DNA from: a virus
Taxonomy: Duplodnaviria; Heunggongvirae; Uroviricota; Caudoviricetes
Strand: one strand, 5' to 3'
Length of the DNA: 36,388 nt
Virus record (IMG/VR): IMGVR_UViG_2671180892_000013
Part shown: positions 301-35,278 of the stretch, piece after piece
Position numbering within the stretch: the first letter of the stretch is position 1
Layout: every line of letters begins with the position of its first letter
Made by a program: the position numbers and the translations under genes
Notes under the pieces: model-generated
What the model saw: only the letters and a program-made list of their open reading frames with translations
Database searches by the model: none
Told to the model about the DNA's origin: nothing

Positions 301-665
301 CTGTGCTGTGGTTTAAACAAACTACTGATAAATAAGAAACACAGTGCCCCCAGCGCACACCAGAACACCGCGCTTAGTAACCATGCCAGCTCTTGCCAGA
401 ATGAGCGCGTCGGTGAAAAAAACAGCCGCATAATGAGCATCGAACAGGGTGCCGCCAGCATTGCGCCAAACAGAGGTTTCAGGACTTCTCTACGCTGTGA
501 AAAGAAGCTGGCGACTGCTCCAGGAAGAATGAAAAATAGCAAGCCGATTTCAGGATGCCCGGCAGCCCGAAAAGCGCCTTTCATGTGCGTCGCCAGAAAA
601 AGGCACACCACAATGAAGAGGACAAAACAGCAGATTGCCCCCGCCCAACGTTGTTTATGTTTCAC
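288..665 (-). CDS. ybjM: inner membrane protein YbjM
   Basis: 125-aa hydrophobic ORF lying between grxA and ybjL as in E. coli gene order. Confidence 0.85.
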   Translation of the reverse strand: MKHKQRWAGAICCFVLFIVVCLFLATHMKGAFRAAGHPEIGLLFFILPGAVASFFSQRREVLKPLFGAMLAAPCSMLIMRLFFSPTRSFWQELAWLLSAVFWCALGALCFLFISSLFKPQHRKNQ

Positions 666-934
666 TCGTTCCTCCTGACACTGCGTCTATCGAACACATT
701 TTTCGCCAGTGTGGCGTTCAGTAAGATAAAGCCGCTTCGCATTCCATGCTAATATAGGCCAACGCAATTCATATAGCCGTTGATACCTAATGTGATTACA
801 CTAGTAAAATATATTGTTACTTTACTATCGTTTAGGTGCGCTGAATGAATCTGCGCCCTGAATTCTGGTAAAAAACATTATCGTAAATTACCATTTCTTT
901 CAACAGCTTACTAGTAAACAAGAAGTTAGCCTCC

Positions 935-2620
935 GTGAATATAAACGTCGCCGAATTGTTAAATGGGAATTACATTCTGTTATTATTTGTGGTCCTCGCG
1001 CTTGGGCTATGTCTCGGAAAGTTACGACTTGGTTCGATCCAACTGGGTAATTCCATTGGCGTTTTAGTCGTATCGCTGTTATTAGGCCAACAACATTTCA
1101 GCATTAACACCGATGCGCTTAATCTTGGCTTTATGCTGTTTATTTTCTGCGTCGGGGTCGAAGCCGGACCGAACTTTTTTTCCATTTTTTTTCGCGATGG
1201 GAAAAATTACCTAATGTTAGCACTGGTGATGGTTGGCAGTGCGCTGGTGATCGCCTTAGGGTTAGGTAAGCTGTTTGGCTGGGATATTGGCCTGACGGCC
1301 GGTATGTTAGCAGGCTCTATGACGTCGACACCGGTTCTGGTCGGTGCTGGCGATACACTGCGTCATTCCGGCATGGAAAGCAGGCAGCTCTCACTGGCAC
1401 TGGATAATCTGAGCCTCGGGTATGCCTTAACCTATTTAATCGGTCTGGTGAGTTTGATTGTTGGTGCGCGTTACTTGCCGAAATTGCAGCATCAGGACTT
1501 ACAGACCAGCGCCCAGCAAATCGCCCGCGAACGTGGCCTGGACACTGATGCCAACCGTAAGGTTTATTTACCGGTGATCCGCGCCTATCGCGTCGGCCCG
1601 GAACTGGTGGCCTGGACCGACGGCAAAAATCTGCGTGAACTGGGTATTTATCGACAAACCGGCTGCTACATTGAACGTATTCGACGTAACGGGATTCTGG
1701 CAAATCCAGACGGTGATGCCGTGCTACAAATGGGCGATGAAATAGCGTTGGTAGGCTATCCCGACGCCCATGCCCGACTCGATCCCAGCTTCCGTAACGG
1801 TAAAGAAGTTTTCGATCGTGACCTTCTCGACATGCGTATCGTCACTGAAGAAGTGGTCGTTAAAAACCATAACGCTGTAGGTAAACGTCTCGCACAACTG
1901 AAGTTGACCGATCACGGTTGCTTCCTTAACCGCGTCATTCGTAGCCAGATTGAGATGCCGATAGATGACAACGTCGTGCTTAACAAAGGTGACGTTTTAC
2001 AAGTCAGCGGCGATGCCCGCCGCGTAAAAACCATCGCCGATCGCATCGGCTTTATCTCGATTCACAGCCAGGTCACTGACCTGCTGGCATTCTGCGCCTT
2101 CTTTGTTATTGGGCTGATGATCGGGATGATCACCTTCCAGTTCAGCACATTCAGTTTCGGCATGGGGAACGCTGCCGGGTTGTTATTCGCCGGAATTATG
2201 CTGGGCTTTATGCGTGCTAACCACCCGACCTTCGGTTACATTCCGCAGGGTGCATTAAGCATGGTGAAAGAGTTCGGCTTGATGGTGTTTATGGCAGGCG
2301 TTGGTCTGAGCGCCGGTAGCGGTATTAATAACGGCCTGGGCGCGATTGGCGGTCAGATGTTGATTGCCGGATTGATTGTCAGTCTGGTGCCCGTGGTTAT
2401 CTGTTTCTTGTTCGGTGCTTATGTATTGCGAATGAACCGCGCGCTGTTGTTCGGCGCAATGATGGGCGCACGTACCTGCGCGCCGGCAATGGAGATCATC
2501 AGTGATACAGCTCGCAGTAACATCCCGGCGCTGGGCTATGCGGGCACCTATGCAATCGCCAACGTCCTGCTGACGCTGGCAGGGACAATCATCGTCATGG
2601 TATGGCCAGGATTAGGATAA
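935..2620 (+). CDS. ybjL: putative transport protein YbjL (AAE-family transporter with central TrkA-C-like domains)
   Basis: 561-aa ORF with membrane N- and C-terminal halves and a soluble middle; GTG start at 935; synteny with grxA and ybjM. Confidence 0.9.
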
Positions 2621-24576: not shown

Positions 24577-25449
24577 CTACCAATTCATGCTTTCTTTTAA
24601 TTCAGTTCGCGCATTTTCAACAAGTTGTACCAACTCTTTAAGACTATCAGTTAACACTTGATGACTACCTTTATTTGTTCTATATGTTAACATATTTACA
24701 TTTAATGTTTTTTCAATAACAGGAACCATATCTCTATGAATACTTTTATCAGCCATAACCATATAATGTGGTTTAACAGCATTGTGCTTGAAAAAAGCAT
24801 CTTCCAGAAGAAGCCTTATATCGGGGTCATTAGCCCCACAACCTATAAATAGAAATGTATGCGTTAAACCCAAGGCATTAAGAATCTCGTAAAAATCTCT
24901 GTACTGTGATCTTGCCTTTGCATAATCACTTCTTGAAAAAATCAAGTTTGACGTATTATCAATTGTGCCGTGAATTTTCAGAATAACACGACCACTATCC
25001 TTTATTGCACTTGCAATATCACTATCAAAATAATTTTTGACACTTACCGTGCCTTCTGTTTCTTTACTAACATATGTTTCATATATTTTATCAAAATTAG
25101 GCGTTACAACAATCCTGCAATCTAATTTAAAAAGAAACTCATGTATATCTGCTTTAGCATAATGTGGATTCAAGAATGCATTTTTTGCAATTTCATCGAA
25201 CCTCCCTTTAGGAAGCTTTGCCTTAATTAATTCACAAGCAGTCAAATAATCTTCGTTTTTAATCAATCGTTTAATTTGTAGCGATGACCCAGAACTGAGT
25301 TCTGGTAAACATCCTTCAAGAAATTGTTTCCAACTTGGAGGCCGTGAATTACCTTTACCAACACTGTTCATTGAGACGCCTGCCCCCAGAAATAAAATAC
25401 ATTTCCGTCTCGCTAAATCGGAGACTAAGCTTTTATCCCAATTAATCAT
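24577..25449 (-). CDS. SIR2-like domain protein (predicted NAD-dependent effector), second gene of a two-gene cargo operon
   Basis: 290 aa; CILFLGAGVS glycine-rich motif near the N-terminus, TPNFD, IHGTID (HG), FLFIGCGANDPD; AT-rich; ATG overlaps the upstream ATPase stop (ATGA). Confidence 0.7.
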   Translation of the reverse strand: MINWDKSLVSDLARRKCILFLGAGVSMNSVGKGNSRPPSWKQFLEGCLPELSSGSSLQIKRLIKNEDYLTACELIKAKLPKGRFDEIAKNAFLNPHYAKADIHEFLFKLDCRIVVTPNFDKIYETYVSKETEGTVSVKNYFDSDIASAIKDSGRVILKIHGTIDNTSNLIFSRSDYAKARSQYRDFYEILNALGLTHTFLFIGCGANDPDIRLLLEDAFFKHNAVKPHYMVMADKSIHRDMVPVIEKTLNVNMLTYRTNKGSHQVLTDSLKELVQLVENARTELKESMNW

Positions 25450-26453
25450 GACTCACTCGCAGCAACATTATCAAGGATACGGGAACAAATACTTTCAAAA
25501 AGCTTCTTAGCATCGTTTACTTTTGAAAAGTGCGATCCTACTACCCCATCTTTATTTTTAAGATTAAAAATTGGAGCATTTGCTAATTGAGACAATGGAA
25601 TTAAGCTATTCATATTCTCAATTTGCCCTAAATCAAAATTCATATCTTGTTTTTTTGCGTAATTATTGATTATTTCTGCTTTCATTGCCTTAGGAATTTT
25701 AAGTGCAATTTTTTCATACGCATTAACTTTTACTTTCTCTCCCCTTACTGTTTTCCCTTTATATTGTTGCATCGCATACCCAAGAAACTTCAGTCTGCAC
25801 TGTAAAGATGAGCCATCGATGATAAAATCTTCACCTTCATTTTTAGTATAGTTTTTCAGGCCATCAGATACACCTTCCATCCAGGCCTTTAGCGAAAGGT
25901 TAATATTATTAAGAGCTAAAAGACTAAACATATCAACAGACATTGGAATAATGAAATAGTCACATGATATTATTATTGCTCTATTCAATGCACCTAATGA
26001 AGGGCCTACATCATATAAAATAAAATCATAGTCTTTATACATGGAGGACAGATGTGAAAAAACAAATGTTGTTTGTATACCTCGAGGTTTCCCTGCCACA
26101 GCGGGGTCCCAATCAGATGCTAAAAAATCCTCACTCAACGCTAACTTGGGATCCCCAGGAATCAAGTCAAAACCAAACCTATCAGTTTTTATTGGAACTA
26201 CACGAGTAGTTGCATATCCTTTTGCCCTCCGAACTGGGGTTAAGAAATTTTCAATTGTATTTCTCTTATCAGAACCATAAAGTTCATCAAGTTTTTTCTC
26301 TCCCAAACAATAAGATGTTGTGTTGCACTGAGGATCGGCGTCAATAACCAACACTTTTTTGTGCATCTCAAGACTAAGATAAGCACCAACATTACACAAC
26401 AATGTAGTTTTGCCAACGCCACCTTTATTATTGAAAAAAACTATACTGTTCAT
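25446..26453 (-). CDS. ParA/MinD-superfamily deviant Walker-A ATPase, first gene of the cargo operon
   Basis: 335 aa; NNKGGVGKTT at residues 8-17, VIDADPQ, ILYDVGPS; no ParB-like gene follows. Confidence 0.75.
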   Translation of the reverse strand: MNSIVFFNNKGGVGKTTLLCNVGAYLSLEMHKKVLVIDADPQCNTTSYCLGEKKLDELYGSDKRNTIENFLTPVRRAKGYATTRVVPIKTDRFGFDLIPGDPKLALSEDFLASDWDPAVAGKPRGIQTTFVFSHLSSMYKDYDFILYDVGPSLGALNRAIIISCDYFIIPMSVDMFSLLALNNINLSLKAWMEGVSDGLKNYTKNEGEDFIIDGSSLQCRLKFLGYAMQQYKGKTVRGEKVKVNAYEKIALKIPKAMKAEIINNYAKKQDMNFDLGQIENMNSLIPLSQLANAPIFNLKNKDGVVGSHFSKVNDAKKLFESICSRILDNVAASES

Positions 26454-26997: not shown

Positions 26998-27333
26998 ATG
27001 AACAATATTCCCCCTATACCACAGTTAGGAATTTATGTCTCAAAAATCGATCCCACCCTACGTATCACTGTAACCGATGTTGATATTGTTGATGGTGAGG
27101 ATGATTCTCCTGATGATGAATTGTTTTATTTAGTCCACTGGATCGAGGGGGAAGATGAAAGTGATATGACAGCAATGGGATTTGAGCTAGACCCAGTAGA
27201 GTGGCAGGCTTTCGTTGAATCTGAGCAATTAGTGTTTGAGCGTGATCCGTACATGGATTCAATCCCCGAAAATTCAAACTTGGCAAAGATTCGGGATTTT
27301 CTCATGAAGACTAAACAGAATGATCATTCGTAA
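26998..27333 (+). CDS. hypothetical small acidic protein
   Basis: 111 aa rich in Asp/Glu (DIVDGEDDSPDDELF, EGEDESDM); strong aaaggag SD 7 nt before the ATG. Confidence 0.6.
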   Translation: MNNIPPIPQLGIYVSKIDPTLRITVTDVDIVDGEDDSPDDELFYLVHWIEGEDESDMTAMGFELDPVEWQAFVESEQLVFERDPYMDSIPENSNLAKIRDFLMKTKQNDHS

Positions 27334-27487: not shown

Positions 27488-27517
27488 GCCCCCATCAGAA
27501 TGAATCCTCCTGGGGGC
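27488..27517. terminator. GC-stem hairpin downstream of the DinI-like gene
   Basis: gccccca ... tgggggc inverted repeat. Confidence 0.3.
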
Positions 27518-27525
27518 AACGTTTC

Positions 27526-27759
27526 TTAATGCAGCCAGCTGTCGTCCTCCCACACCTTCTGCATAATTTTCATCACTTGTTTTCTTTCTTCATCCAGTTG
27601 CAGTCCGGTTAGTTCCACACCGTTAGAGCTACCTTTGCGAATGCGAATTACCGTTTTGGGATACAGGGGGCGCAGATTGCGGTAAAGCTCGGATTCAAGG
27701 GCGTCCAGGGTAGACTGGCTAATCTTCTGCTCTTTATCGATCATTATTTCAATGCGCAT
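27526..27759 (-). CDS. DinI-family protein
   Basis: ATG at 27757-27759 with aggtga SD; product MRIEIMIDKEQKISQSTLDALESELYRNLRPLYP...VWEDDSWLH aligns with DinI (MRIE...DAL..EL...WE...W); the track ORF extends 24 codons upstream. Confidence 0.7.
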   Translation of the reverse strand: MRIEIMIDKEQKISQSTLDALESELYRNLRPLYPKTVIRIRKGSSNGVELTGLQLDEERKQVMKIMQKVWEDDSWLH

Positions 27760-27769
27760 AAAAGTCACC

Positions 27770-27958
27770 TCAGCTGATGACATCCATTGAGCGGTTGTAT
27801 TCGTGGCTTCTGATTTTTGCCATGAGTTCATCAGTCAATTCAGAAACCCACTGCAGAGCCAGCCCCTTCTCTTCATCACTACACTCACTAGCCGCTACAA
27901 GCTTAAGAAAAAAATCAATGCGCTGGAGCTTCAAAGACTCCAAAAAATAGTCCTGCAT
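27770..27958 (-). CDS. hypothetical small protein, first gene of the SOS-regulated pair (possible Tum-like antirepressor part)
   Basis: 62 aa; aggagga SD; LexA box 43 bp upstream; 186 Tum is an SOS-induced antirepressor with a DinI-like part (recalled). Confidence 0.45.
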   Translation of the reverse strand: MQDYFLESLKLQRIDFFLKLVAASECSDEEKGLALQWVSELTDELMAKIRSHEYNRSMDVIS

Positions 27959-28000
27959 CTTTCCTCCTATGACACCAAAACAATACTGTATACATAACCA

Positions 28001-28016
28001 CTGTTTATATTTACAG
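28001..28016. promoter_or_regulatory. LexA (SOS) box
   Basis: CTGTTTATATTTACAG is an exact CTGT-N8-ACAG match; a second partial box (CTGTATACATAACCAC) lies just upstream on the plus strand. Confidence 0.65.
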
Positions 28017-28110
28017 TATATAATAATCTTACTGATGTAAAACGTTTTTTTACGTTCATCGGCCTGATATGCCTGGTATTATTAAGAGCACGAATTGTTA
28101 ACCCGCGTAA

Positions 28111-30525
28111 TTAATACAGGTTCCGCCACTTATCATCTTCCTTCAGACGTTGGTTCCGATAGAAGATACGCAGGCCTGCTCCTGACGGAATACTGCCGCC
28201 GCGAAGGAGCAAATCGACTTCTTTCTCGCTGCCATCAAATCCCCTGGACTTCAGTTCATAGACGAGCTGCTGTCGCTGATGGTCTGTAATTCGCTGTTTG
28301 TAGTCTTTACGCCGTTTCGGTTTCACCTGGCGTAACCTTGCAGCCAGTTCCCGGCGCTCTTTTTTGCTCATACTGTGCAGGTAATCGTGCAACTCCTTGT
28401 CATTCATACGGGTAATATCCGTTCTGGAGTCCCCATCAGCTGATTTGTCTTTCCCTTGTTGGTTCAAATTTTCAGCAAGGGGACAGTTATTGCCACGAGT
28501 CCAAGGGGCGCAAGCGCCCTGGTCGGCTGCCGCCTCCTGAACGTCAACGGCCTTACGAACCATTTTCCACTTCACTGCATGAGTGCAGATCTTGCCCTCT
28601 GCAATGGGTGACCAGATGCCATAAATACGAATGCCGTGATCGCCATAGGCGGTCGGCTCTTCGTTGATTTCATAAGCGGTTCTGATCAGGTGATATTTGC
28701 GGGGAACCAGTACGCCGCCCTGCTTCATGATGTAGGTGGCAAAACAACCAGCATCAGCAGCAGCCAGGATTGCATCAAGGCGCGGGTTATCCAGTACCGG
28801 CGCACCTGCTTTTTTGTCCCCCTGTTGCCTTGCCGCCTGACCAGCCAGCAATCGCAGTTCACGGTAAGCCTGACGCCCCGGAATGCCAAAGAAGCGGAAT
28901 TGCTGAACACGATGCAGAGACGCCCAGGCATTAACGTATTCAGCATTATCACGCAGGGATTTCCCCGTTTCCTTGCTGATCTCGCCAGCCAGACCACGCC
29001 CGTCAATGTTCTTACTGATGTATTTCGCGATGTAGCTTGTTGGCGTACCTTTGCGCGGGTTAATCAACTCAGACTTAAAGCGCGGCCCCGTGTTATTGCC
29101 CAGCTCCTCGCGGTCTTCACGGATAGCAAACTTACGCAACAATGCAGTAATGGCGCGGCGGTCTTTTTTGCGCATGAAACACAACAGGTGCCAGTGAACT
29201 GTGCCGTCGTGATGCGGCTCAGCCACCCGCACGCCATACCAGCGCAACCCGGCTTTGTGCATCGCCTTACGAAATGCAGCAAACATACCGACCAGATAAT
29301 CGCTGCTTTGTCTTACCGTCGCGTTTTTCCAGGTCGGGTTGGGTCTGCCGTTATTGCGCGTGGAATGGAAACGTGACGGACAGGTAATGGTGTAGAAAAC
29401 GGCGCAGTCACCGCGCATTTCCGCGATAAGCTCCAGACCTTTAACACAGGCCATCATCTCATTGCGGCGATGCGCCGGGTTGCTGCAGCTGGCGTTTACC
29501 ACATCTTCCATATCCAGCACGTCTCCGTCTTCGTTCACCAGTTCATGAGAACGGAAAAACTCCAGCGACTTACGGCGCTGCTCACGTTTATGCATCACAG
29601 CTTCATAGCTGACATAGGGAGATGCTTTTTTGCTGACCAGGCAGACAGCACGCAACTGCTCTTCCCGCCATTCGCAACGCATCTTCCACAATTTCCGATA
29701 CCACCAGTCGGCGCACAGCATACGCGCCAGCGAGCCCGGAATGAGTTCATAGGGCACTGGTTTACGGCGGTTTCTTTTCCGACGGAGTTGCTCAAACGCA
29801 GGCGGGATGACATCCAAACGTAGGGTTTCCGCTGCCACCTTTTCCCATGTCTTGCGGATTTCTTCTGGCTTAACATCATCGGTGGCGTACAAATCACCAC
29901 AAGCGGCATCAAGACACATGCTCATATGCGCAGCGACAAGGGTAGACAGGCGTTTCACCTGATCCTGACTCATTTCAGGCAGGATCAGCAGGCCGTCCAG
30001 CCCTTCATGGCTTGCCATAAAGCGAAAAGAAGTGGATAGCTGACTGTCGCGTACATGCTCCAGTCGTTCCAGACATGGCTTAATCGTCTCACGCAAATAG
30101 CGGGAATAAGCCTTTGGCCTGCCCAGGCTGCTGAAGTATTCAATACGTTGCATCAGCGGCTTGCTGATATGGGAAGGCTGGGCGTTGACGTCAGCCAGAA
30201 TGACCATGTCTGGATTAAAACGCTGCTGCTCATGCGCCAGCTTTGCCCGGCTAATGAGCTTATCCTGCTCCATTTCGCGCTGGACAGGATCACGGGATTC
30301 ATTAAAGAAATAACGCTCCCAGACCTGCTCACTCAGTGCCTCGCGGCGCAGTTGTTCCTGCTCGTTATCGGCAGCATACAGAGTGATCAGGTTTGAAAGT
30401 GCAGACTCCGGCGCAACTTCCGCCGGGTCCAGATAAGGGTTAATGGCCTTTTTCGGGCCGTTCCATGAAAATGATGCAGCGGCCTCGTTAAAGCCGCTAG
30501 AGTTGCTCATATCGTCATGACTCAT
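28111..30525 (-). CDS. A: replication initiation protein A (rolling-circle HUH endonuclease)
   Basis: 804 aa; HWH (HUH) motif and YIAKYISK tyrosine pair; large early gene downstream of dam. Confidence 0.85.
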
Positions 30526-33339: not shown

Positions 33340-33915
33340 ATGGATTTCAGCAGCGGTGGTAAGAAAGTCATTGAACGTCTAGTTGAGGCGTACGGGTTCT
33401 CTACGAGACAAGCTCTTTGCGATCATTTGGGAGTATCCAAGAGCACCATGGCTACACGTTACATGCGAGACATCTTCCCTGCAGATTGGGTTTTGCAATG
33501 TGCTATTGAAACTGGTTATCCACTAGAATGGCTGGCATTCGGTATAGGGGACAAAAAACCCTCAAATATAAATGCACAAATTTTGGTACCAAAGAAAAAA
33601 TTAATTTCAGGAACGTTAATTGAAGATGGAGCATATATTTTTGATAAAACATTCTTACCTGAAAAAATATGTAATCCGTTCATCATTCAAGATCTGGATA
33701 ACGAATACATATGTAGCTCTGAATATAATGACATAAGCGATGGATTGTGGCTAATAGGCATAGACGAAAAAATTTCGGTCCGAACCCTGACCCGCTTACC
33801 TAATAACAGGTTATATGTTGAAGGAGGAAATCGTGGCTTTGAGTGTTCCAGAGATGAAATACAGGTTATTGGAATTGTGTGGTGCTGCATACTAAGAAGA
33901 GCAGAAAAATTTTAG
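33340..33915 (+). CDS. cI: CI-like immunity repressor
   Basis: ATG at 33340 preceded by ggagga; 191 aa, N-terminal HTH-like region (ERLVEAYGFSTRQALCDHLGVSKSTMATRY); 186 CI is about the same length. Confidence 0.7.
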   Translation: MDFSSGGKKVIERLVEAYGFSTRQALCDHLGVSKSTMATRYMRDIFPADWVLQCAIETGYPLEWLAFGIGDKKPSNINAQILVPKKKLISGTLIEDGAYIFDKTFLPEKICNPFIIQDLDNEYICSSEYNDISDGLWLIGIDEKISVRTLTRLPNNRLYVEGGNRGFECSRDEIQVIGIVWCCILRRAEKF

Positions 33916-33946: not shown

Positions 33947-35278
33947 ATGCCTATTGAATATACGTTTGATTATCGTGATGAGTTCCTTCGTAAGCCTATT
34001 GCTGAAAAATTAATAGCTCTACTGAACTCTGATATTAACTTATCTCCGCTGGTTATAGATGGCGGATGGGGCACGGGAAAAACAGAGTTTTGCAAAAAAG
34101 TTGCAAATCTAATTGAAAACAATAATCAAAAACATAAAGTAGTTTACATTGATGCTTTCGCTGAAGATCATAATGATGCCCCCATTTTGACGTTAATGGC
34201 AGGTGTTGCTGCACTTTTGCCCGAAGACAAACGAAAAGAGTTGATAAGCAAAACACTACCAGCAATACGTTTTGGTTTGAAAACCATTTTCAAAGCTGGC
34301 ACTGGATGGGTGTTAAAACAAAATGCAGATGACATTGTTGATGGCTTCGAAGATGCTATCAAAGAAGCCACTTCGAGTGCAATCGACAGTACAATTGAAA
34401 CATTATTAGACGATCATATAGAAGCACAGAAAAACATCGAGACATTGAGAAATACAATTTCGCAACTTACAGAGAAATTTAAAATAACGATTATTATAGA
34501 CGAACTGGACAGATGTAAACCTACATTCGCTCTTTCAATCATAGAAAATATTAAACACATTTTTGAAATAAAAAACTTGAATTTTGTTTTGGTTGCAAAG
34601 ACTCAACAACTCAAAGCATCAATAAGCCATCTGTATGGTTTATCCATAAATGCAGAACAGTATTTAGACAAATTCATAAAATTTACATTTGTATTGCCCG
34701 ATACATTTAAACCAGACAACTATACACCTGCATACGCATCTGTCGCTTTATGGGAAATATTAAAAAATGATTCTCAAAGACTGCAAGAAGTAAACGAAGA
34801 ATGCGGGCATATTATAAAAACGATAATACAAAGAGCTAAGTTGTCTTTACGTGAAGTAGAAACATTATCGCGCCATTTTGAAATATATCAGGTGCTATCT
34901 CAATCTGGAATTGGTCCAGAAAAAATATTTGGTTATTCATTATACCGAACGTTAGGAGTGATGCTATATTCTCTAAATCGCCCTTTGGCATTAAGCTATC
35001 TAGATAATTCTGTGGATGCAGAAAGTACTATCAAAACATTAGGCTTTGAATATTTAAGTTATGATGAGGATATTTATAGTGTAGATAATACTGAATATGC
35101 TATTTATGGGATCGTACTAGACTATATTGATGCAACATCTCCATTCTTTATAAAGGATGATGAAACCAGAAAAAAATGGACTGAACATGCTACCTATAGT
35201 TTCTTTCAAAAGGGCTTAAATACTGTTCCTCCCCGAAAACTTGTTTCGTCCGCCATTGAAGTTTTAATGCTCAACTAA
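33947..35278 (+). CDS. KAP-family P-loop NTPase; cargo gene between cI and int
   Basis: 443 aa; Walker A GGWGTGKT, Walker B IIIDELDRC; strongly AT-rich codon usage. Confidence 0.7.
   Translation: MPIEYTFDYRDEFLRKPIAEKLIALLNSDINLSPLVIDGGWGTGKTEFCKKVANLIENNNQKHKVVYIDAFAEDHNDAPILTLMAGVAALLPEDKRKELISKTLPAIRFGLKTIFKAGTGWVLKQNADDIVDGFEDAIKEATSSAIDSTIETLLDDHIEAQKNIETLRNTISQLTEKFKITIIIDELDRCKPTFALSIIENIKHIFEIKNLNFVLVAKTQQLKASISHLYGLSINAEQYLDKFIKFTFVLPDTFKPDNYTPAYASVALWEILKNDSQRLQEVNEECGHIIKTIIQRAKLSLREVETLSRHFEIYQVLSQSGIGPEKIFGYSLYRTLGVMLYSLNRPLALSYLDNSVDAESTIKTLGFEYLSYDEDIYSVDNTEYAIYGIVLDYIDATSPFFIKDDETRKKWTEHATYSFFQKGLNTVPPRKLVSSAIEVLMLN

Follow-up and report, generated by a model that had tools for sequence, protein, structure and literature searches.

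Gene organization of the locus

The window, i.e., the whole stretch of 36,388 nucleotides analysed here, represents a prophage of the P2/186-like group (Peduoviridae) whose early genes lie on the minus strand. Upstream of the replication gene A (30525..28111, minus strand) lies a switch region of the 186 type with CII (Pfam Phage_CP76), an open reading frame in the Apl/Cox position and the immunity repressor gene cI (33340..33915, plus strand), and portal and terminase genes are located downstream of the locus described here. Directly behind gene A and on the same strand follow a promoter region with LexA boxes, a tumA-like gene for a protein of 62 residues (27958..27770), predicted to be a CI antirepressor, and a tumB-like gene for a DinI-family protein of 77 residues (27759..27526); the genes and their products are called tumA and tumB, TumA and TumB, below. 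An initial annotation of this DNA had reported a LexA operator, a 62-residue open reading frame and a DinI-family gene, and all three were found, on the minus strand, where it had placed them.

The strong Shine-Dalgarno (SD) sequence described for tumA is AGGAGG, 4 nt before the ATG. The tumB gene has an SD sequence of its own, GAGGTG, 6 nt before its ATG, which is overlapped by the TGA stop codon of tumA. Two distances needed correction: the gap between the genes measures 10 nt instead of 11, and the core of the LexA box ends 42 nt before the tumA ATG instead of 43. The reading frame of tumB is +1 relative to tumA. Directly after the tumB stop codon, a G+C-rich hairpin (27517..27488, minus strand; RNA folding energy -20.4 kcal/mol, z -2.0) may serve as terminator of the operon; this assignment is of low confidence, the hairpin having a weak U-tract and being missed by a terminator scan.

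SOS promoter and LexA operators

The putative SOS promoter, as read from the sequence, consists of a -35 hexamer TTTACA (28036..28041, minus strand), which is equivalent to that of the promoter p95 of phage 186, and a -10 hexamer TACTGT (28013..28018, minus strand), separated by 17 nt; gene A ends just upstream, at 28111. A generic sigma-70 scan did not call this promoter, because TACTGT matches TATAAT at only three of six positions. The -10 hexamer is embedded in LexA box 1, TACTGTAAATATAAACAGTG (28018..27999, minus strand), the core of which, CTGT-N8-ACAG, is the 16-mer CTGTTTATATTTACAG (28016..28001). Taken by itself, the bare core is weak evidence, since one match was found in the window versus 0.37 expected, and 33 of 100 shuffled sequences contained at least one. 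With 17 of its 20 positions in agreement with the LexA consensus TACTGTATATATATACAGTA, the complete 20-mer was equalled in none of the 100 shuffles, which substantiates the consensus operator reported upstream of tumA.

A second box, LexA box 2, CAGTGGTTATGTATACAGTA (28003..27984, minus strand), overlaps box 1; its right half is perfect, its left half weak. It had been overlooked in the initial annotation, and by sequence the two boxes together are a double operator of the colicin type. Over 46 nt, the region shares 87% identity with the operator that directly precedes the colicin R gene of plasmid pColR; overlapping pairs of SOS boxes of this kind are classic for colicin genes. Phylogenetic footprinting with seven relatives showed that the -35 hexamer, both LexA boxes and both SD sequences are invariant and that the spacers diverge; box 2 is kept in all seven of these Fels-2-type relatives despite diverged flanks. 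Phages 186, PSP3, ESSI-2 and ev015 carry a LexA box in the corresponding place, in each case a single one, box 2 being absent. Compared with the single box of 186, a double LexA operator would be expected to repress more tightly and, possibly, to fire later.

The same promoter and LexA-box region occurs on the Klebsiella plasmid p1878-9k (9 kb; positions 1501..1547), where it follows a P2-type replication endonuclease gene; the next annotated gene, at the position expected for tumA, is a group II intron reverse transcriptase.

The 62-residue protein

Searches with single sequences were of little help in placing TumA. BLASTP gave no alignment with 186 Tum or with PSP3 TumA, a Pfam search yielded nothing significant, and a PDB sequence search with the TumA family profile had zero matches. 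A single-sequence HMMER search of 1.8 billion representatives retrieved 67 proteins, almost all of 35–130 residues and none resembling the fused Tum of about 146 residues; therefore, this search made no direct bridge to 186. AlphaFold predicts a two-helix hairpin with good confidence (pLDDT 88), for which Foldseek found only generic helical hairpins in the PDB (best E 0.83), and thus the fold gives no functional clue. A literature search under the names TumA and TumB provided nothing relevant.

The relation to Tum is visible only to profile methods. TumA matches the PHROG families phrog_698 (E 5.9e-38), phrog_8554 and phrog_1993, and all three are also hit, in the same register, by residues 1–61 of 186 Tum. 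A comparison by hhalign of the family profile (28 diverse representatives, 32–74% identical to the query) with 186 Tum aligned residues 3–44 to residues 3–44 with a probability of 94.9% and an E value of 4.5e-8, at an identity of only about 20% between TumA and the N-terminal part of Tum. With TumA of PSP3, the one split form for which activity has been reported, the same profile gave the right register but a weak match (E 0.004, probability 8.6%). The initial annotation would have counted a lack of similarity of the 62-residue product to Tum-type antirepressors against its proposal; such a similarity is missed by BLASTP and is present when profile methods are used. As judged from the latter and from the reciprocal PHROG hits, TumA is a homologue of the N-terminal part of 186 Tum.

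It could be argued that TumA is no antirepressor at all, that the operon encodes an SOS accessory pair, i.e., a RecA modulator and an unrelated protein, and that the prophage is induced otherwise or is non-inducible. Such a reading would agree with the lack of a Pfam family and of a solved or significant structural relative for TumA, with the remoteness of the similarity to 186 Tum, and with the annotation of the protein as "hypothetical protein" in the best eight RefSeq records, where tumB is a "DinI-like family protein". Furthermore, the Salmonella prophage BTP5, which is non-inducible, transcribes a tum homologue but releases no phage (PMC7067206). We nevertheless consider an accessory pair unlikely, in view of the in-register profile match and the reciprocal hits, of the position after gene A with a LexA-promoter layout as in 186, and of a published passage on PSP3 and Fels-2 (PMC3121763; see below). 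In ESSI-2 and ev015, gene A is followed directly by a LexA box and a distant TumA homologue (41–49% identical), and in phages of the ESSI-2 type the tumA homologue stands there alone, without a DinI gene, as expected of an essential trigger and contrary to what an accessory pair would suggest. This pattern fits a role of tumA as the essential trigger and of tumB as an optional modulator, as far as gene content can indicate it.

The DinI-family protein

The assignment of the second gene in the initial annotation is well supported: TumB matches Pfam DinI (PF06183) with E 6.6e-23 and 81 bits versus a cut-off of 24, and its residues 14–76 cover the profile over its full length (positions 1–63 of 63). 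In the alignments that had been suggested as a check, TumB is 41% identical, without gaps, to residues 71–145 of 186 Tum and 29% identical to E. coli DinI; it also matches the DinI structure in the PDB (1GHH, E 2.7e-6).

Comparisons with relatives diverged by 10–15% gave a coding signal for both genes, with 16–20 synonymous versus 6–10 non-synonymous codon changes in tumA and 19–23 versus 9–14 in tumB; third positions dominate the differences in both. By this pattern of substitutions, both open reading frames are coding sequence under purifying selection.

Two cistrons instead of a fused gene

A possible splitting of Tum into two reading frames had been proposed, and this is what was found: tumA ends with TGA, and after the 10-nt gap tumB begins in the +1 frame behind its own SD sequence. 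Unlike 186, whose Tum is one polypeptide of 146 residues, the locus does not encode both parts in one chain. Since there are two separate cistrons, the element is placed in the split tumA/tumB form.

Before its ATG, the DinI frame does contain 24 further codons without a stop (open reading frame 27831..27526) and overlaps tumA, as had been noted; the suggestion that this overlap is a trace of a frameshift did not hold. At least 24 stop-free codons are present upstream of 45% of random positions in the window, so that the open stretch is at chance level, and among relatives the number of stop-free codons upstream of tumB varies (25, 14, 4 or 1). The frame offset between the genes varies as well: the window and Fels-2 have +1, SopEphi, SEN8 and a Klebsiella phage have +2, and PSP3 and a Yersinia phage have 0. 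The variable offsets and the chance-level open stretch make both a recent frameshift and programmed recoding unlikely, and a frameshift of either kind was rejected as a candidate on the grounds of the offsets among relatives.

The first of these would amount to a decayed, frameshifted and non-working remnant of a single fused tum gene. That 186 carries both parts in one polypeptide, and that tumB is offset by +1 from tumA and preceded by 24 open codons in its frame, might be taken as signs of such a history. We regard it as very improbable, since both cistrons are intact, have strong SD sequences of their own and are each under purifying selection, since the open stretch is at chance and not conserved, and since even in 186 an internal GTG gives rise to a separate DinI-like product. 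In addition, the two-gene form is conserved in phages of Escherichia, Salmonella, Klebsiella and Yersinia and in more than 1,000 E. coli genomes. On the available sequence comparisons, the tumA/tumB split is a conserved two-cistron design and not a recent frameshift.

Equally improbable, in our estimate, is a programmed +1 frameshift or a read-through of the stop codon, by which a Tum-like fusion would be made besides the separate products. The overlap of the tumB frame with the end of tumA, and a small hairpin (27781..27764) which spans the tumA stop codon and the tumB SD sequence, could be quoted for it; but a slippery site is not evident, and one conserved mechanism could not fit offsets of +1, +2 and 0. 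The hairpin was the sole call of a generic promoter and terminator scan. With z -1.0 it is not significant, nor is it conserved in relatives, and it was therefore rejected as an attenuator or coupling element.

Escherichia phage 500465-1 (positions 599..1231) differs from six other phages by single-base indels in both tumA and tumB, and the genes are annotated there as shifted, longer open reading frames. The indels may represent either sequencing or assembly errors or a truly decayed copy.

The CI repressor and its pairing with TumA

The presumed target of TumA is the product of cI, a repressor of the 186 type which is 34% identical to 186 CI. It contains the Pfam domains Phage_CI_repr and Phage_CI_C and has no S24 self-cleavage domain. 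Consequently, RecA-stimulated self-cleavage is not expected, and an antirepressor would be the expected route of induction; the missing cleavage domain also speaks against the accessory pair considered above.

A search of 50,697 phage records with the CI sequence found no close relative, one record having an identity of 60–80% and all others being below 60%. The tumA/tumB module only 5 kb away is 97–98% identical to that of many of these phages, and the immunity region is therefore strongly mosaic.

Phages whose TumA proteins are 97–100% identical to that of the window have CI proteins with an overall identity to the window CI of 38–48%; for Fels-2, Kp 4LV2017 and RE2010 the value is 38–44%. 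The N-terminal helix-turn-helix (HTH) domains of these repressors are 60–73% identical to that of the window, their C-terminal oligomerisation domains 25–38%. Over 45 phage pairs, and with shared ancestry ignored, TumA identity correlated with identity of the CI N-terminal domain (Spearman 0.85) and much less with that of the C-terminal domain (0.31). These figures hint that TumA may contact the DNA-binding domain of CI and might work across prophages, which is to be read as a lead and not as a result. A more far-reaching idea, possible but rather doubtful, is that the near-invariant TumA docks on the HTH domain of CI and acts in trans, and that the colicin-like double operator of the Fels-2 lineage, in place of the single box of 186, makes the lysis decision require more damage or come with a delay. 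With such a TumA, co-resident Fels-2-like prophages with different CI repressors would be induced together.

Neighbouring genes

Convergent to tumB lies an open reading frame for an acidic protein of 111 residues (26998..27333, plus strand), in the place which is occupied by orf97 in 186 and Fels-2. It matches phrog_17127, a family of unknown function (E 2e-70), and E. coli annotations list it as hypothetical; Pfam and PADLOC searches were without a match. Further on, the variable region that separates tumB from the portal gene contains a two-gene cargo operon on the minus strand (24577..26453). It encodes a ParA/AAA_31-like ATPase of 335 residues (26453..25446) and a SIR2_2-domain protein of 290 residues (25449..24577), the two genes overlapping by 4 nt. 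The SIR2_2 protein matched the PADLOC models ThsA and LmuA at about 1e-21, and no complete PADLOC system was matched by the pair. The pair lies in the known hotspot of P2-type phages and looks like a candidate for anti-phage defence.

A gene for a KAP-family P-loop NTPase of 443 residues (33947..35278, plus strand) is inserted between cI and int. The match of the protein to PDC-S20, a candidate defence model of PADLOC, extends over almost the whole length (E 5e-174). In phage vB_EcoM-813R9, the same slot holds a different gene, annotated as "chromosome segregation ATPase".

Distribution and annotation

Between the end of gene A and the stop codon of tumB, the DNA is 97% identical to that of Fels-2 and of many Peduoviridae of Klebsiella, Salmonella and Escherichia. 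Among complete E. coli genomes, about one fifth (1,125 of 5,426) contain the module. The element in the window is a near-identical copy of the known split tum operon of the Fels-2/PSP3 type and is ordinary for this phage group.

Since the mechanism and the split have already been described, the scientific gain is small, and the practical value lies in the annotation of the antirepressor gene. The module would account for the induction by DNA damage of a prophage whose repressor is not RecA-cleavable, which may be relevant for predicting the mobilisation of prophages by SOS-inducing antibiotics. The colicin-like double LexA box, and the combination of a near-invariant TumA with diverse C-terminal domains of CI, could each support a small study.

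Proposed mechanism

The arrangement of the tum type at this locus is real, and it is probably functional. The initial annotation had proposed that the pair may be the SOS-controlled trigger of prophage induction. This proposal gains support from the homology to Tum, from the p95-like layout, from the identity to Fels-2 and from the literature on PSP3 and Fels-2. With high confidence, we consider the element to be the SOS operon of a Fels-2-like prophage (186-type, Peduoviridae), in the split tumA/tumB form and with antirepression of CI. Points against this explanation are the remote similarity to Tum, the weak match to PSP3 TumA, the promoter not called by the scan and the absent orf97.

Binding of LexA, damage-induced transcription, binding of TumA to CI and the role of TumB are inferred by homology, and the most likely sequence of events would be as follows. 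In an undamaged cell, host LexA would occupy the two overlapping operators, which lie across the -10 hexamer and the promoter's start region, and the operon would be silent. Following DNA damage, active RecA would bring about self-cleavage of LexA, and the promoter would fire. TumA, predicted to be a small helical hairpin, would then bind the CI of the prophage and keep it from binding its operators, upon which the early lytic promoter would become derepressed and the prophage would be induced without cleavage of CI. TumB, translated from its own SD sequence, most likely would act on RecA filaments and modulate the SOS signal, since the short DinI-like products of 186 tum are annotated in this way.

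Comparison with known systems

Both the mechanism and the split arrangement are already known from the literature for 186, PSP3 and Fels-2. In 186, Tum is under control of LexA; it inhibits and effectively sequesters CI, and a p95-tum fragment has been used as a UV-inducible module (PMC7708051). The sequence record of 186 describes p95 as an SOS-dependent promoter with a LexA site over the -10 hexamer TACTGT, states that Tum "inhibits CI DNA binding", and attributes modulation of SOS induction to shorter DinI-like products from internal starts. The window shares with 186 the position of the operon directly after gene A, the identical -10 hexamer overlapped by a LexA site, a -35 hexamer (TTCACA in p95, TTTACA in the window) in the same position, a CI target of the 186 type and, in TumA and TumB, homologues of the N-terminal and C-terminal parts of Tum; the separate DinI-like product, made in 186 from the internal GTG, is a further likeness. 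The differences are that the main product of 186 is one fusion protein, that there is a single LexA box and that orf97 completes the operon.

According to a passage in Lemire et al. (PMC3121763), tum is split in two in Fels-2 and PSP3, and the upstream gene of PSP3 has antirepressor activity; the statement is based there on Bunny et al. 2002 and on a personal communication from G. Christie. The record of PSP3 describes tumA as "similar to 5' end 186 tum; UV induction of prophage" and tumB as "similar to dinI and 3' end of 186 tum". As in the window, two cistrons, for an antirepressor part and a DinI part, follow a LexA box after gene A, and the TumB proteins are about 78% identical (17 of 77 codons with non-synonymous differences). 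The TumA proteins, however, are only about 22% identical, and PSP3 has a single LexA box and genes that are in frame, with tumB beginning 3 nt after the stop codon.

Fels-2 is the closest of these systems. Its TumA (STM2728) differs at two of 62 residues (97% identity), its TumB (STM2726.1) is identical, with no non-synonymous codon difference, and the double LexA box, the SD sequences, the gap of 10 nt and the +1 offset are all shared with the window; in the Fels-2 record, a note on the DinI-family gene points to its similarity to PSP3 TumB. The similarity of the DNA ends at the tumB stop codon. Downstream, Fels-2 has the orf97-like gene STM2726, whereas in the window this distal gene of the 186 and Fels-2 operons is absent, and the hairpin, the convergent 111-residue open reading frame and the ParA-like and SIR2 pair are found instead. 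The CI proteins also differ, with an overall identity of only 38%.

Less closely related systems show single traits of the operon. Like E. coli DinI (PDB 1GHH), TumB has the complete DinI-family domain, with the acidic C-terminal helix; it differs in the low identity given above and in being phage-borne and, by prediction, co-transcribed with an antirepressor. The operator of colicin R on pColR has the same overlapping two-box layout, CTGT-N8-ACAG-T-GGTTAT-N4-TACAG, over the -10 region; there it controls a bacteriocin gene, whereas the double box of the window would control a prophage antirepressor. In Gifsy prophages, LexA-repressed operons likewise pair a DinI homologue with a small antirepressor, GfoA or GftA (PMC3121763), but these are lambdoid phages, and the gene order is reversed, the dinI homologue preceding gfoA or gftA.
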